From: Mizuhopecten yessoensis
Lineage: Eukaryota
NCBI RefSeq assembly: GCF_002113885.1
Contig: NW_018479978.1
Coordinates: 1 to 64,000, forward strand
DNA: 64,000 nt
Direction of reading: 5' to 3'
Shown: positions 7,063 through 58,400 of the stretch, piece by piece
Layout of the letters: every line of letters starts with the position of its first letter
How positions within the stretch are numbered: position 1 is the stretch's first letter
The notes under the pieces: model-generated
What the model saw: only the letters and a program-made list of their open reading frames with translations
What the model was told of the DNA's origin: nothing
Databases searched by the model: none
Position numbers and translations under genes: made by a program

Positions 7063-7498
7063 TGTAACATGCAGGCGATCACACCTCCAGTTACTGACCA
7101 CACTCGACGTTGCTGAACCAGTGAACGAGTCCCCATATTATACAGCATTACTGGAAAAGCTAGCTTGTCAGTAAGGCAGTATTTTCCACTTTAATTCCTT
7201 AGCTGTAACACAATTTCCCCCGCTGAGAAGTTTTGTCCCGAGACTTGGCCAGGATAATCCCGTAGGTCCTCCTTGTGTATCAATGCACCTTTCCCTAACC
7301 ATTGGGAACTGGCCTTACATGATCGCTCAGATTCCAACCGCTGCCACCAAATGTAACGTGCAGGCAGTCACCCGTCCAGCTACTGACCAAACTCAATGTT
7401 ACTGAACTAGTGAGCGGGTCCCCAGGTTATACTGCATCACTGGAAAAGCTAGCTTGCTAGTAAGGCAGTATTTTCCACCGAATTCTTAAGCTGTTACA
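7063..7498 (-). mobile_element. TRIM (miniature non-autonomous LTR retroelement) with 5S rRNA-like sequence in both LTRs
   Basis: Direct repeats 7063-7210 and 7352-7498, each TGT..ACA. The 4-bp TSD GTAC is at 7059-7062 and 7499-7502. A minus-strand PBS TGGTGGCAGCGG (within 7331-7349) is complementary to the tRNA-Leu 3' end, and a purine run GGGGGAAA precedes the 3' LTR. 5S-like segments lie at 7072-7118 and 7361-7407. Confidence 0.88.
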
Positions 7499-31800: not shown

Positions 31801-34800
31801 GGTCAATTGACATCCGTGTTGATATCACTATCGAAAGTTTTGTGTAAGTATTGATTACCTAAATAATATAATTTCATCGTAATGATTGTTTCTGTTTTTA
31901 TTATTTGCAGAACACTACATAATGACTTTAATCTACTGCGGAATGTTGAAAATGCTGGTGAATTAATGAAGAAGGAATCGGAGGAACTGGGTCGGCTGGT
32001 CCAGAAAAGGTTTAAATACCTACAGGTGAGAGATCACAGAATCATTTTTTGGTCATATATTGTTTTTATGTTGTAAGGTTACATTTTTGTTGTATAAACC
32101 CCAGTGTTATGTTTATTAAAACTGAAATTGTGATTGTAGAACCCAAAGGACTGTGCATCAGCTAAGAAGCTGGTATGTAATCTGAGCAAAGGCTGTGGGT
32201 ATGGGTGTCAGCTCCACCATGTCACATACTGTATGATGGTAGCTTACGCCACAAAGAGGACCTTGATATTAGAATCCAGGGGTTGGCGGTATGCAAGCAG
32301 AGGCTGGGAGTCTGTGTTCCTACCACTAAGTGACAACTGCAAGGACAAAAAGGGCAGTAGCTCCAGACCCTGGGCAGGTAAACATATATGTACCTGTTGT
32401 AATTGCAGTACATGTACCATAAGATAAAATGATAGAGCCTGAAAGCTCAATATAATCTAACTTTCCAACACTGGTCCCCTTTCACATATAGAAGCACGGA
32501 CTCTTGAGATTACCAATCATTCTGTGGAGACCTACAGTACAACATATGACAGAAGTTTTCAAGCTATAAAGTTTTTCAGCTCTAGGTCTTTGTGAAATCT
32601 TGTTCTACATAAGAATGTAATATACTATTGTTTCCATGCTCTGCCTTTCTTTGTCCCCTGCTGTTATTACTGGATAGGAACAAAGCTTTGCATTCCGTTA
32701 GTCTGTCAGTCCATCTGTCAATCAGCCTGGGAACCACAAACGACCAACACAAACACATTTTATATATGAGTATTTCTGAGGATAGGAAGCGTTACATACT
32801 GAAGTCCTAGGCCTCACTGGAGTTATGACCTTTTGTTCATTATTGATACCACGTTTATCTGAAGGTAGGGGACTATGTCACTTTGATACCAAAGATGACA
32901 TTTCAGATGTTTTGCACAGTAATTCTGGACAGGGAGACATTGTTACTGACAATCAAACCTTAGTTTGTATGTCTGTTTGATTGTTATGTATATAGTCTGT
33001 CTCATTATGAACTATATTTGACTTTCAGATCCTGATATAATCCGTGATGCCCAAGTAGTGGAGATGCCCATTGTTGACAGTCTTCACCCAAGACCAAATT
33101 ATCTCCCTTTGGCCATCCCCATGGACCTATCAGACAGACTCATGCGACTACATGGTGATCCAGCAGTATGGTGGATTGGTCAGTTTGTGAAGTATCTGAC
33201 TCGTCCTCAGCCTCAACTACAAACAGACATGGAGAATGCCAAGGCCAAGCTTGGATTCTCTAAGCCCATAGTGGGGTAAGGCAAGCTTAGATTATCTTGT
33301 CCAGTGGTAGAGTAAGTCAGATTATGTAGTCTGAATGTTCAACAAATCAATTAAATTTTGATTATGTTATCCCAAAGGCAGGTTTTAGCTAGGATTATTA
33401 TAAAACCAGAACACCATAGTTGACACCTTAATGTGGGAGGAAACCGGAGTATCCAGAGAAACCAATGTGATCGGGCAGGTGACCCCATACCTTTTCACTT
33501 CCGATCCCAGCCGTCTTGGTGAAAGGCGAATACACTATCCACTGTGCCATATGACCATCCACTTGGCTGGAATTATCATAAACCCAGAGTACCATAGTTG
33601 AAACTTAGCTGGGTCTATGATAAGCCCGGGGTCTATGCATGACATGTATGTATTTTGCGGTAGTTAAATTAACCCTAGACTATTGAACACACAGGGTCCA
33701 TGTGCGGCGTACAGACAAAGTGGGTACAGAGGCAGCCTTCCACAGTATAGATGAGTACATGCTTTATGTTGAGGAATACTACGACAGACTGGAGGCCAGG
33801 GAACCTGTCCATACCCGCAAAGTCTACTTGGCTTCAGACGACCCTTCAGTCCTACCAGACGCCAAGTCTAGGTGAGTAAAGAATATGCTTAAATTTTTTA
33901 GGCTTAAAGTTGCTGAAAGCCAGTAGTTATATCATATTTATATATTGTACATTTACATTTGTTTATCAAAGGTAGGGGTATGGCAGATACCCAGGGTTTT
34001 AGTGAAAATCAACACTGACATTTCTAGATAATGTACAAGTGAAAGAAGAACATATTAGAAGAGAGAAGAGAAATGTATACCAGTGTTACTTTGCCTATTT
34101 ATAAAATAATAAAAAAATATACAACATTGGATATTGCGCCCTATCTAGCTAACATAAGCCACTCTAAAGCGCTTTATAGTACATAGATATACAATTTTAT
34201 ACAGTCAATACAATATTGAGGAATTCGCAGGAGCTGCCTTATCAGGTGCTAACTACTAGTCCTATGCCACCTGGCTAATATCTTCCTATGTGTGTATGCC
34301 TGTGTGTGCTGGAGATGTATTGTGTTCTGTTTGTAGTGGGACCGTGCTTCCAACGGTATCATTTATAATGCCACCTCACTTGAAAGCTACAGCACCCCAG
34401 ACCATTTCATACTCCACCTGGGTTGTTGGAGTTGTGTGGGCAGGAGAAAAACACTTTCTCTAATATTTCATACGTACGGCGACTTCGGGGATTGAACCCC
34501 GGTCGCCTGCTTGGAAGGCCGGAGTGTTAACCACTCGACCAATCCGCCCATAATCATACTATTTATATTAACAGGTATCCCCACTATACGTTTATAAGTG
34601 ACATAGAGATTACAAAGACAGCAGGACTCAACAAGCGCTACACTGACCAATCTCTGCATGGCATCATCATGGACATCCACTTCCTGTCTCTGTCCGACTA
34701 TCTTGTCTGCACTTTCTCCTCTCAGGTAACAAAGCCAATAATTTGATGATGATGCAGTTTAACCTTGTCGTTCGAGACACTTAGATTACTAGGGAAATAT

Positions 34801-53239: not shown

Positions 53240-53690
53240 TAGTGTATGTGTGTGTGTTTTGGGAGGCTGCAATATGTTCGTGTTGGTCTTCTTGTGATAG
53301 TGCGGAACTGATGCCGACTTTATAGTGCTACCTCACTGAAACATACTGCCGAAGACACCAGCAGGACACCCCACCTGTTTGTTCATTGGTTACTGTATAC
53401 CTGCTTTCACGAGCACTAGTTATGGCAGCTGAGGTCCTCTTGATTTAGTAAACCTTTATGTGACCTTTAGGGATTTGGTTTGGTTTAGTATTGTTTAACG
53501 TCCTATCAACAGCTATAGTTATTTAAGGACGGCCTCCCCTGTGTGCAAGTGCATGCGTGTGTGTTTTGGGGGGCTGCGATATGTTTGTGTTTGTCTTGTG
53601 ATAGCGCGGAACTGATGCCGACTTTATAGTGCTACCTCACTGAAACATACTGCCGAAGACACCTAGCAGGACACCCAACCTGGTCAATTA
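53240..53690 (-). mobile_element. Two tandem SINE body fragments (Meta-domain-like)
   Basis: GCGGAACTGATGCCGACTTTATAGTGCTACCTCACTGAAACATACTGCCGAAGACACC occurs at about 53302 and about 53606. Confidence 0.6.
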
Positions 53691-53780
53691 CTTTCACATA
53701 ATTTTCATAATAATCAAAAATACAGATATCTGAATTTAAATTTTTAAAAGTGATATCTTCATTTTAAATAGAGGTATCTG

Positions 53781-54132
53781 TGTAGCGGAAATGGACTGGG
53801 TGGATCGTCAGTGACCAGAGGGTTTGAGGGTCCCCAGTTCGAACCCGGTCTGGCCATGCATTTTTTCCTCTCCTGTTACAGTGGTGCCTGTGACCAACCC
53901 TTGTTTCAAGCAATTGGTGTTTGCTTTGCAAGGGGATACCCGAACCTGGTTTGTAAATAGTTGTGTTTACGCGGGTGAATACTTAGAAAAAGGAGGGAGG
54001 AATGTAGCGGAACTGGACTGTGGGTCGATTGTCGGCGACCAGGTAGCTCAATTGGTTGAGCGTCTGTGCAGAGTATGGCGGGTCCTGCGTTCGAACCCTG
54101 GTCTGTTCGTGCATTTTTCCACTCCTGTTACA
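53781..54132 (+). mobile_element. TRIM with tRNA-like pol III promoter in its LTRs (Helenus-type)
   Basis: LTRs 53781-53880 and 54003-54132 (TGTAGCGGAA..TCCTGTTACA). TSD TCTG at 53777-53780 and 54133-54136. PBS TGGTGCCTGTGACC from 53882 (tRNA-His-like) and PPT AGAAAAAGGAGGGAGGAA at 53985-54002. A box TAGCTCAATTGG at 54044-54055 and B box GTTCGAACC at 54089-54097. Confidence 0.9.
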
Positions 54133-54199
54133 TCTGTATTAACAAGGCCTGGAAATTGTTCAGAGACTATTTTACAGATGCTTTAGACCTGATGTGGCT

Positions 54200-54720
54200 T
54201 TCATAAAAGAAATTCGCCTAAAACAACGTACTGAACCCTGGATGACCTCTGAAATTCTTGACCTCATATCTTCAAGAGGAGTCACAATCCTGATTTATAT
54301 GAAGAATTTTGCCATCTCAGAAATAAACTTCAAAAACTTGTTAAAAAAGCAATTATTTTGAAAATAAAATCGAAGAAAATAAAGGCAATTCTAAAAACAT
54401 GTGGAAACAATTTAAGGGCCTGGGATATGAAAGGAGTTAGAAATCAAACCCCAAAACAGTTCTCAATATTGATGGTGTAAACTGTCATGATGACTTTACA
54501 GTAGCCTACCATTTTAACAATTTTTTGTATTACTGTTGCTTCTAAATTGGTTGAAAAACTTCCATTGTGTAAAGGCTTGTACCATTATACATTAAAGTTG
54601 TTTAAGGATTTTTATACTAAAAGAAACCCGAAAGAGATTAAATTTCATCTTCATTATGTCTCGGAAGAGTTTGTGTATAGGGAGTTATGCAATTTGAGTA
54701 TATATGTAAAAGTACAGGTT
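54200..54720 (+). mobile_element. Degenerate LINE ORF2 fragment (endonuclease-RT linker)
   Basis: Reads ..NKIEENKGNSKNMWKQFKGLGY.. and ..VSEEFVYRELCNL.., with frameshifts. Confidence 0.6.
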
Positions 54721-55469: not shown

Positions 55470-58400
55470 ATGGCGACGTCCAAGAAGAAGAAGAAAGTTG
55501 TTTCCAAAGATGATTTGAGACGTTTGATGAAAGAGAAAAAGGCAACCGTTGCTACAACTAAACGCATAGAGCACCAATTTGCCAAGTAATAGTTTTTCAT
55601 GATTTACATAGGGTGTCACATTTTTTCAAATCATAAAACCAGCGTATTCCTAGCTATATCGTCTAGTCATATGTTTCCGCGCGTTATGTATTTCCGCGCA
55701 GACATTTTATCAAGCTATATCTCGTAACTACGTGACCTGCTGGACACAACACAATGATATTTTAGACGTTTGGCCATTGTCTGTAAGCTGACACAAACAT
55801 TACCGGAAGTTCGTCCAAAAAACATCAGAAATAATCACTGATTAAAAAAACACGCATTAAAATATGCAATATGGCTGCCACACCAAACTGTGTATCAAAT
55901 TCAATAATGCATTATGTTAGCGTTAAACATTCCCTGTCACAAAATAATCCTCCTCCAATATTTCATATTTCTAAAACATAATTGAGGTACATGCACACTA
56001 AATTTCAGAAAAAAACATTCAATAACTGATGAAAAACTCACTTTTTATATGTTCATTTTCCATGCTAAATAAAAGTAACAATTCAGGAAAGAAACCATTT
56101 AAACTCGTAAATATCATAAGGTTGGATGTCCATGGAGATGCATTTGTCGAGAAAAATGTGAGAAAATGCTTCAAATCTCGAGAATGATTTCCATTAGTAG
56201 ATATAAGTACACATGTTTATGACAGTATGATCCGTAATTTCAACAGTTTTCTGCCGATATGAGTACAAAATCGCAGTTGCTTCTTAAGTGCGCGGAAACC
56301 GGTAACACAAGGAAACCACTGTCATATCGCCCCCCCCCCTCCGATTCCAGCAATTTAGTTCTGTTATCTTCGCTTCATTACCTGGAGCTAAGTGATCAAA
56401 ACCTGTGTGGATGGTTTGGCCCTTTTCAACCATATACCTTAACAGCTGTTTACAATATTCAAAAATGAAAATGAATAAATCTATAAAATGTTGCAACAGG
56501 AAAGGAAGTTGGACACAAAGACACACATGGGTAATAATCTTGTAGTAGGTCGATGAATAGCTACAGTATAGTGATAAAGATATTGCCGTCGCTGGGGCTC
56601 GAACCCGCTACTTTTGGCTCTTCAGCTCAATGCTCTACTGCTGATCCCTACAGCTGACGCTTGTATACATACAGGTCAGGGAAAACCACTAACTTGCATA
56701 TAATACCCAAACTCGCCTATTATATGCATTATAGGGGTATGGATTTGTTACTAAAAATAGCCAAAATCACTTTAATCTTGGCTATTTCATTTTTTATGTC
56801 CAAGTCAAATTTATTCAGTCATGAAACATAATACAAATGCAAAAATAAACTTTATTTGCATGTGGGAAAGTACCAAAAATAGATGCAATACTTACGGTAA
56901 AGTTACATCAAGTTTCTAAGTAGCCAACGCTTTCAGTAAATATGTTTTAGCAAAATATTATTTACCTTGTCGTAAATTAATGCGATTTTTAATAATATCC
57001 TGCAAAAGTTACTGTTAAAGCGATTTGGGTTATTTTTAGTAACAAATCCATACTCCAACTGGCGTATAATGCATTGCAAAGGCAAATGTTGTTATGAGAC
57101 TATATTACTATAACAATTTAACGTTTGCTATTGTAACGTCATCAATTTCATTGTTGTCAAAACTTGATTTGCGGTTAAAAAACTGTTCAAAATAACTGAA
57201 TAAAGCATAATTACCGGTACTCTTATCAAAATGTAAATATAAATAAATAATATTTTAGCAAATGTTGTTCTGGTCCACTCCTATACACTAGCACACATTT
57301 CTATTGCTGACAAACTTACCGTACATAAAGCCCTGTACTGTTGTGGTGTGGATATTGATATAACTGATCAGTAAAATATACTTGACGTAACCAAAGATTT
57401 TGTGTTATAGGTATAACAGTGTCGACCAGCTTGTGTGTGTAATTTGTAATACAGTAATTAAAAGTGGACAATTGTGGCCATCACATCTACAGAGCAGACA
57501 GCATAAAGAGGTAATACTGTGTAATCATCTTTTGGAATCATAATTCAAAGCATAATCAGGGGTGATGTTTGAATCAAAATATTTCATTTGTATCAGGTTT
57601 AAATAAGAAATTTCACCATATAGTATGAATACAAGAAAAAGTATAATTTACATTGTAATTTGAGAAAATTGAGATAAATCATTGACAAGAATAGGAAAAT
57701 AGGGGATTTTTTCAAATATTGATTATTTCTAATATGAAATTTGTTAATGTTTAGTTCATCTCTTTAAAAATATCCAATATTCTTCTGAAAAGTTGACATA
57801 CAATTTAGATTCAGGTTTCCTAACCAAGTAATTTTTATTGAAAAATTGTAAATATTTCTGGTTTTTTTGGATAAATTCTATACCTCAGTTTTTATACTGA
57901 ATTATTTAGAATGTACATGTATAAGCCAGATGAAGATGACCTTCTTTTCAGAAGTCACTTTTCTTACATTGAGTGAAAAAATGGTCTATTTTCAGAATTT
58001 TGGAAATATATATGTCCATAAAAAGTGATTGCTTTACCCAATTGAAGACATTTAAATCTTTTAATATGATTTTCCATAGAAATTAACTCAAGTGAAGCCA
58101 GCTGTGGACACTTTTACCACTGGTGTGAAGAGGGGTCTCCCACAGCAGTCAAACAGTCATGAAGATTCTAAAAGACTTAGAGGTACATTTACTCACATAT
58201 CTTATTTACTAAGTTAAAGTGATATTGTATTTGTTCTTAAAACATTCTTGTGATGCCATCCATTGTTATAATTGTCCATTATATAGAATATGAGTACTGT
58301 TATATGCATAACTGTCCAATATGTTACAAAAACTGTCCAATAAGATCATAAAACTGTCCAATATTTTAATATTGTACAGTTTGTTAAAAATAACGGACAT

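Follow-up and report, generated by a model that had tools for sequence, protein, structure and literature searches.

Helenus elements (TRIMp3) have been described from five bivalve orders, scallops included, with lengths of 311-1263 bp (Kojima 2024, PMC10886601). In animals they make a 4-bp target-site duplication (TSD), and both their mobilization by a Gypsy element that uses an identical primer and their transcription by RNA polymerase III (pol III) have been proposed (PMC10886601). Cassandra and Ajax, also TRIMp3, resemble the family analyzed here: they are short LTR elements without coding sequence, each LTR has a promoter of the pol III type and a terminator-like run, and tandem arrays and solo LTRs occur (PMC10886601, PMC7215508). 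However, their promoter is derived from 5S, Ajax is reported from ribbon worms only and leaves a 5-bp TSD, and in the parts of these two papers used here transcription data are given for Cassandra only. A further bivalve TRIM with solo and tandem forms, biv-TRIM (Satovic 2019, PMC6934838), has repeats of 202-218 nt, an interior of 77-80 nt, no canonical primer-binding site (PBS) and, in the part of that study used here, no reported tRNA module; the element described below does not fit this description.

We analyzed a window of 64,000 nucleotides from the scallop Mizuhopecten yessoensis (contig NW_018479978.1, positions 1 to 64,000), in which an earlier note, made from the letters alone, had marked a Helenus-type TRIM. 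The element is real, spans 352 bp (53781..54132) and, judged by its sequence, belongs as an unlisted member to a kind already known from this host group: a short, non-coding element with two LTRs that are tRNA-like in the family, a PBS, a polypurine tract (PPT), a 4-bp TSD and homology to described Helenus. Literature searches found no paper after Kojima 2024 on scallop Helenus. As one more Helenus copy the element carries little weight, since its kind, host group and LTR lineage are already published. The three primer sites found on near-identical backbones within this one genome open to direct study how a non-autonomous element changes its primer, and whether its helper changes along with it.

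Structure and affinities of the window element

The LTR lengths and termini, TSD, PPT, interior length and placement of the PBS that the earlier note had given all stand in the sequence (Table 1), and alignment of the two LTRs bears out its loss of the A box from the 5' LTR. Between these LTRs, 15% of the aligned bases differ; the first G of the B box is missing from both, and an A box is present in the 3' LTR only. The window copy is old and decayed, and it is likely dead because its 5' LTR has no A box. Family LTRs are mostly 127-130 nt long, and undeleted copies measure about 378 bp. The whole interior, with its two predicted hairpins, has a fold z of -1.29 in the window copy and -2.11 in a sister copy (L002); that these hairpins might act as a packaging signal is a guess.

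Table 1. Features of the Helenus copy and its target site, in window coordinates.
Feature	Position	Strand	Basis
Left TSD, TCTG	53777..53780	+	sequence
5' LTR, 100 nt, TG..CA; gap of ~27 nt takes out the A box	53781..53880	+	LTR-LTR alignment
B-box core, 5' LTR	53837..53845	+	sequence
Pol III terminator-like T5-T6 run, 5' LTR	53861..53866	+	sequence
Interior, 122 nt	53881..54002	+	sequence
PBS for tRNA-His(GTG), 14 pairs plus one-base bulge; starts 1 nt past the 5' LTR	53882..53896	+	duplex pairing
Predicted interior hairpin 1	53898..53934	+	folding; layout recurs by eye in His-type Helenus of oyster and scallop
Predicted interior hairpin 2, common to the Lys-type interior	53963..53982	+	folding and interior comparison
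PPT, 18 purines, adjoining the 3' LTR	53985..54002	+	sequence; present in 59/61 His-type interiors
3' LTR, 130 nt, TG..CA	54003..54132	+	sequence
Decayed tRNA-like module, 3' LTR	54037..54109	+	mapped from the Rfam tRNA match in sister LTR L039
A box, 3' LTR	54044..54055	+	sequence
B-box core, 3' LTR	54089..54097	+	sequence
Pol III terminator-like T5 run, 3' LTR	54114..54118	+	sequence
Right TSD, TCTG	54133..54136	+	sequence

The tRNA-like sequence claimed for the 3' LTR holds up in its A box and B-box core and in sister LTRs that match Rfam tRNA at 47-52 bits (L038; 3' LTR of L039). The module of the window copy itself is too decayed to be recognized, with no ARAGORN call and no Rfam tRNA match at E<=5, and its tRNA origin is suggested by the two boxes together with the sister copies. 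By Rfam the family LTR matches tRNA, not 5S, and in the sister LTRs the tRNA part sets in about 33 nt inside the LTR. At default settings, ARAGORN scored 57 of 170 sampled family LTRs as tRNA genes, 48 of these 57 with the anticodon AGA (Ser); their bodies measure 73-75 nt and do not have the long variable arm that is a trait of serine tRNAs. Counts of tRNA genes in the scallop genome would be inflated by these LTRs, mostly under Ser(AGA). Among 87 His-type LTRs (the primer type of the window copy), the A-box motif, sought as TRGCY..YGG, was found in 58 and a GGTTC B box in 63; conservation of the two boxes (0.95 and 0.90) is barely higher than the 0.88-0.92 across the remaining LTR. A weak tRNA-Gly(TCC) call elsewhere in the window (34477-34548, minus strand; Rfam 31 bits) is unrelated to the Helenus LTR. 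A similar call recurs at another locus (L027), so the one in the window may be the head of a SINE.

Among described elements, Helenus-2_PeMa of Pecten maximus and Helenus-1_ArIr of Argopecten irradians belong to the same LTR lineage, with LTRs of 129-130 nt and 4-bp TSDs (PMC10886601, Data S1). In alignments made and counted by hand, the Helenus-2_PeMa LTR is identical to the window 3' LTR at 106/127 positions (83%) and to a sister LTR (L039) at 115/127 (91%). However, the interiors of the two listed elements are 90-93 nt long and Lys-primed, whereas that of the window copy is 122 nt long and His-primed; their visible orthologue in the M. yessoensis genome is an 88-nt Lys-type interior. Neither the PBS nor the body motif of the His-type interior, nor the Arg site described below, turned up in Data S1 of PMC10886601 by a text search in which a line break could hide a match. 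By eye, six listed His-type families (Helenus-2C_CGi and Helenus-1_SaGl of oysters, Helenus-3_PeMa, Helenus-4_PeMa, Helenus-5_PeMa and Helenus-4_ArIr) resemble the window element in their His PBS, two-hairpin interior, linker motif and PPT, and the oyster pair also has a related LTR of 128-129 nt. The interiors of these families have nevertheless diverged from that of the window element, the scallop His families carry longer and different LTRs, and the one-base PBS bulge of several lies at another base and place. Since the LTR has listed orthologues in scallops and a relative in oysters, its lineage was inherited and not built in this genome. The same genome also contains other LTR ends (L189, L190) that are nearly identical to those of Helenus-4_MiYe. 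One such Helenus-4_MiYe-like locus (L189; G000:C2959, near 89,800, minus strand) has an interior of only about 47 nt, in which the PBS is almost joined to the PPT region, and an unbulged His site.

Transcription of the family

Pol III drive of this family is a proposal. We lean, by a little, towards an inferred model in which active master copies would be transcribed by pol III from the A and B boxes of their 5' LTR. Transcription would start about 33 nt into that LTR, pass the T run before the PBS as a leaky terminator, and end at its counterpart in the 3' LTR; the RNA would be about 330 nt long, with the tRNA-like part as its R region. Pol III is expected to stop at a run of T>=4, and runs of this length lie between promoter and PBS in 76/84 His-type and 48/53 Lys-type LTRs; most Arg-type LTRs have T3 there (T<=3 in 16/23).

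The main rival to the leaky-terminator model keeps the same TRIM and has its full-length RNA made by pol II reading through from host or tandem-array transcripts. Pol III would then make just an 80-nt RNA ending at the first T run, and the tRNA-like part would be a passenger or would serve packaging or TFIIIC binding. The T runs ahead of the PBS in His- and Lys-type LTRs favor this account, and the portions of Kojima 2024 used here call pol III use by Helenus unvalidated (PMC10886601). It is also favored by one raw RNA run, the reads of which resemble read-through of many loci: they come about equally from both strands, show no pile-ups of starts or ends, and in 93% of cases run on into unlike sequence. 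That run was random-primed with 150-nt reads and is blind to an 80-nt RNA. Against pol II read-through, the A and B boxes and the cloverleaf are retained across scallop and oyster families, Arg-type LTRs offer mostly only the T3 run, and Cassandra is reported to be transcribed by pol III from LTR to LTR despite terminators in both (PMC10886601, PMC7215508). Overall we regard pol II read-through as a real but minority possibility.

Primer sites and a candidate helper

Reverse transcription of the LTR type begins from a tRNA bound at the PBS, its plus strand is started from the PPT, and integrase yields a short duplication of the target. Very probably, the window element is a Helenus-type miniature LTR retrotransposon copy that arose in this way, its RNA likely primed by the host tRNA-His and its insertion likely carried out by Gypsy-like helper enzymes that left the 4-bp duplication. 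The element has no coding room, so these enzymes would be supplied in trans.

To characterize the primer, we compared the PBS with the tRNA genes of the M. yessoensis genome (988 Mb). Sixteen matches to tRNA-His at its 3' end were found, and tRNA-His(GTG) was called in 10 of the 12 fetched. The earlier note's reading of the PBS as tRNA-His-like is upheld, with one amendment: the site pairs with host tRNA-His(GTG) plus CCA around one bulged T. This duplex has an energy of about -25.4 to -25.5 kcal/mol, compared to -12.1 for shuffles, of which 1/2000 was as strong; with tRNA-Arg the window PBS reaches only -10.3 kcal/mol. The bulge was present in 58 of 61 His-type interiors and an unbulged site in 0 of 61, and it is a family trait. 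A pattern search for a tRNA-His gene variant with which the site would pair unbulged gave two matches; neither is a tRNA, one being chance-like and the other the PBS of a long LTR element.

Three primer sites (His, Lys and Arg(ACG)) occur on this one LTR lineage. The Lys type has an 88-nt interior, and its PBS, a putative tRNA-Lys site, fits the Lys set in Fig. S2 of Kojima 2024 (PMC10886601). His- and Lys-type LTRs (87 and 53) show 0.5% net divergence and no fixed column, and the sequence common to the two interiors is limited to their 3' 45-50 nt. A pattern joining LTR end and interior body gave 134 matches; among the 100 listed, a count by hand with one case unclear found 36 with the Arg PBS and 64 with the His site. 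The Arg-type PBS is the exact 14-base complement of host tRNA-Arg(ACG) (18 gene matches; Arg called in 10 of the 10 fetched), with a duplex energy of -29.1 kcal/mol compared to -8.9 with tRNA-His. In 13 Arg and 52 His interiors the body differs by 2.3% net and the PBS is replaced. Five complete copies were found among the 36 Arg junctions, and all five have a TSD with <=1 mismatch. The bivalve primers given in the portions of Kojima 2024 used here are Lys, His, Ile, Pro, Glu and Ser, from which Arg(ACG) is absent, and none of the listed His-type Helenus has the Arg(ACG) site (PMC10886601).

The three sites likely record primer switches within one lineage, and perhaps switches of the helper retrotransposon as well. 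We consider it probable that swapping of some kind took place, in which primer and interior would have been changed either through a template switch from one co-packaged RNA to another or because a mis-primed tRNA was copied. The bulge was never corrected, which suggests that the PBS takes up little sequence from the tRNA; this speaks for template switching and makes tRNA copying less likely as the normal route. Reshuffling of modules has been reported in non-autonomous elements of plants (PMC13570524), and Kojima 2024 inferred from weak trees that primers had changed between Helenus families (PMC10886601).

Alternatively, the three types could be long-separate sister families that diverged gradually and never exchanged modules. 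Consistent with this, the Arg-type LTR has a 3' tail of its own and lies 3.5-4.7% net from the other types, and a mixed tandem array, of an Arg unit and a His unit, was seen only once (L014). The apparent ages differ as well: divergence within a type is 0.26 for Arg LTRs (n=23), 0.21 for His (n=26) and 0.15 for Lys (n=29), rough values because they come from pattern-picked loci only and the patterns differed by type. However, His and Lys LTRs are near-identical while their 5' interiors are unrelated, and His and Arg elements have a common interior body on which the entire PBS was exchanged, with one version matched to tRNA-His and the other to tRNA-Arg of the host. Such a mosaic of LTR, interior and PBS does not arise by gradual drift, and long-separate families are improbable. 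Resolution is poor in the LTR tree (too few columns, bootstrap unsettled, stars on 10 of 136 branches), which has partial clustering by primer type (20 changes versus 42.5 when shuffled).

On the reading that modules were swapped, the divergences within types suggest that the Arg, His and Lys types were successive waves. As to the direction of change, comparisons by eye point two ways: the oyster His elements speak for an old His site on this interior body, while the Arg-type spacer and LTR tail resemble those of the Lys-primed Helenus-2_PeMa. A more specific and rather doubtful proposal is that only the primer site was rewritten between His and Arg, at the 8-9 bases facing the acceptor stem, on one interior body. 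A single event, in which a mis-primed tRNA is copied, would suffice for this and would allow a TRIM driven by pol III to move from one Gypsy helper to another in successive waves (Arg, His, Lys). The tRNAs for His and Arg(ACG) have the flanking CCA and T-stem bases in common at the PBS.

We next consider the helper. Packaging and reverse transcription of the RNA would be done in trans by a Gypsy-like family that is itself His-primed, and with some reserve we favor a family of long-LTR elements that has the same bulged PBS. Outside the TRIM family, His-type PBSs were found at 21 sites in the genome, and 19 of these regions were read. Members of the best candidate family have long TG..GTTACA LTRs, a 4-bp TSD in one copy (L183), two CCHC motifs in a putative gag (L269; Retrotrans_gag at E 4e-4, below the cut-off) and an integrase match (L300; Integrase_H2C2, E 4e-15). 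In 13 of the 15 PBSs seen in this family an extra base, usually A, stands at the position of the TRIM bulge; it is T in L269, a copy found by a pattern that required the extra base. The TRIM and this family have only the 16-nt PBS and the terminal bases in common. In 34 regions of 5.5-10 kb (the 19 above and 15 of the best family) there was no intact His-primed helper, only decayed gag and integrase pieces, and no reverse transcriptase was seen in the candidate-helper regions examined; a Gypsy identity is suggested by the gag and integrase domains and the PBS comparison of Kojima 2024 (PMC10886601). For the Arg type, a 17-nt exact Arg(ACG) site had 0 matches elsewhere in the assembly. A different His-primed LTR element (L196, G000:C5485:333400-342700, minus strand; also L184 and L187) has 629-nt LTRs that are 98% identical, a TSD of CAAG and an interior of about 2 kb with no frame of >=200 aa. 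This element is young, so that His-primed machinery making 4-bp duplications would have been active later than the wave of His-type TRIMs. The long-LTR family with the bulged PBS is a candidate for the helper.

It is very improbable that the tRNA-like LTR RNA primes synthesis by pairing with the element's own PBS. The best LTR-PBS duplex reaches -21.4 kcal/mol; however, it is interrupted and involves LTR positions 18-37 instead of the 3' terminus of the tRNA-like part, while host tRNA-His offers 14 pairs at -25.4 kcal/mol from its CCA end. We rejected self-priming on these grounds; moreover, one LTR accompanies three different PBSs, and Kojima 2024 found no such complementarity in the portions used here (PMC10886601).

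Genomic copies, target sites and neighbors

To gather copies, we searched the M. yessoensis genome with the whole element (3127 first-look candidates, best 40 scored, 30 loci). Among these best 40 of 3127, all 28 distinct elements, the window copy included, are built as LTR-interior-LTR, three of them as tandem arrays. This sample is biased towards complete elements; hence, a second search was made with the LTR alone (2070 candidates, best 40 scored, 30 loci), in which 25 distinct loci were new: 13 Lys-type TRIMs, one more with an insertion, two 5'-truncated copies and nine solo LTRs, of which seven have an exact 4-bp TSD and two a TSD with one mismatch. The Lys-type copy with the insertion (L039; G000:C1496:1118074-1119055) holds about 640 nt inserted right before the PPT and has the TSD CTTA at both ends. 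At another locus (L090; G000:C588, ~104,900-110,800), a minisatellite of 52-57 nt has a unit that combines the last 33 nt of the LTR with the His PBS; its two blocks, which hold dozens of units, are followed by a normal His-type interior, and the units join at the AACCC common to the end of the B box and the tail of the PBS.

For the TSDs, 130 pieces were parsed, of which 76 were left out for broken ends, PBS or PPT flanks, or N, leaving 54 intact copies; one of these (L123) is a misfiled 5' LTR and was scored as a miss. The 4-bp TSD is exact in 27 of the 54 and has <=1 mismatch in 45, compared to 0.65 and 4.4 for shuffled flanks, and an exact 5- or 6-bp TSD was found in 0/54. The His-type copies behave in the same way (9/27 exact, 21/27 with <=1 mismatch, 0/27 at 5 bp; 0.26 and 2.0 for shuffled flanks). 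Per-position match is 0.81-0.85 at 4 bp versus 0.11-0.46 at 3, 5 or 6 bp. Target sites tend towards TA|NNNN|TA, with T at -2 in 29/45, A at -1 in 27/45, T at +1 in 23/45 and A at +2 in 35/45, against a background of about one-third. The assignment to Helenus-type TRIMs with 4-bp TSDs made in the earlier note is confirmed by these duplications and by the homology of the LTR to that of Helenus-2_PeMa.

The earlier note had named, as evidence that would speak against its reading, copies that lack the LTR-PBS-PPT-LTR structure and end in SINE-like tails; the copies keep the structure or are solo LTRs, and a tail-like run stands at 1 of 100 3' ends, where it is the TTTT of a TSD. A chance tandem of two tRNA-derived SINEs or pseudo-tRNAs, which the LTRs scored as tRNA genes and the common solo units might suggest, is refuted by the fixed TG..CA ends, the PBS and PPT at fixed places, a tRNA part that lies inside the unit and not at its 5' end, the absence of an A-rich or simple-repeat tail (none at 99/100 ends), and TSDs around the whole unit of strictly 4 bp rather than variable length, and is practically excluded.

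At the window locus, contigs from DNA runs span the left junction (X1, X4) and the right junction (X4, X7) without differences, and in the three DNA runs no joint skipping the element was present among the 15 of 154 joints listed. A 964-nt contig from X4 matches 53649-53880 and then departs precisely where the 5' LTR ends; either a solo-LTR allele or a graph artefact might account for it.

As the earlier note had stated, a 5S-type TRIM is present within 50 kb of the tRNA-type one: it occupies 7063-7498 (minus strand), 46 kb away, and has 148-nt LTRs, the TSD GTAC, which at 4 bp differs from that of Ajax, and a Leu-type PBS. It is multi-copy (loci L202-L221), with 571 first-look candidates genome-wide. 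Its LTR can be aligned with the stretch from box A to box C in the 5S gene of this genome (36/48 bases in L205), with a score above all 500 shuffles in 4/7 copies; Rfam gave no 5S match to this LTR. From about 570 candidates in 988 Mb, we estimate the chance of one lying within 50 kb of a given copy at ~6%; at this value, and with the tRNA type inherited, the closeness of the two TRIMs is weak evidence. The suggestion that LTR parasites driven by pol III are built again and again in this genome is not supported for the window element, whose LTR was inherited and whose pol III drive is only proposed. By eye, a motif upstream of the 5S part is similar to one that precedes the tRNA part in several scallop and oyster Helenus LTRs, a hint that 5S and tRNA promoters may have been swapped within one LTR lineage.

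Directly downstream of the element (54137-54720), decayed frames resemble what may be the part of a CR1/L2-type LINE that separates endonuclease from RT, and their codon phase continues across the TSD, as if the TRIM had landed in an old LINE. About 1.3 kb downstream, a short, exon-like frame starting with ATG (55470-55589, plus strand), for which a PDB search gave no match, resembles what may be the start of ZNF830/CCDC16. Just upstream, pieces of a very high-copy repeat (53241-53377 and 53474-53686) form a 91% direct repeat, with a summed contig depth far above that of the TRIM.
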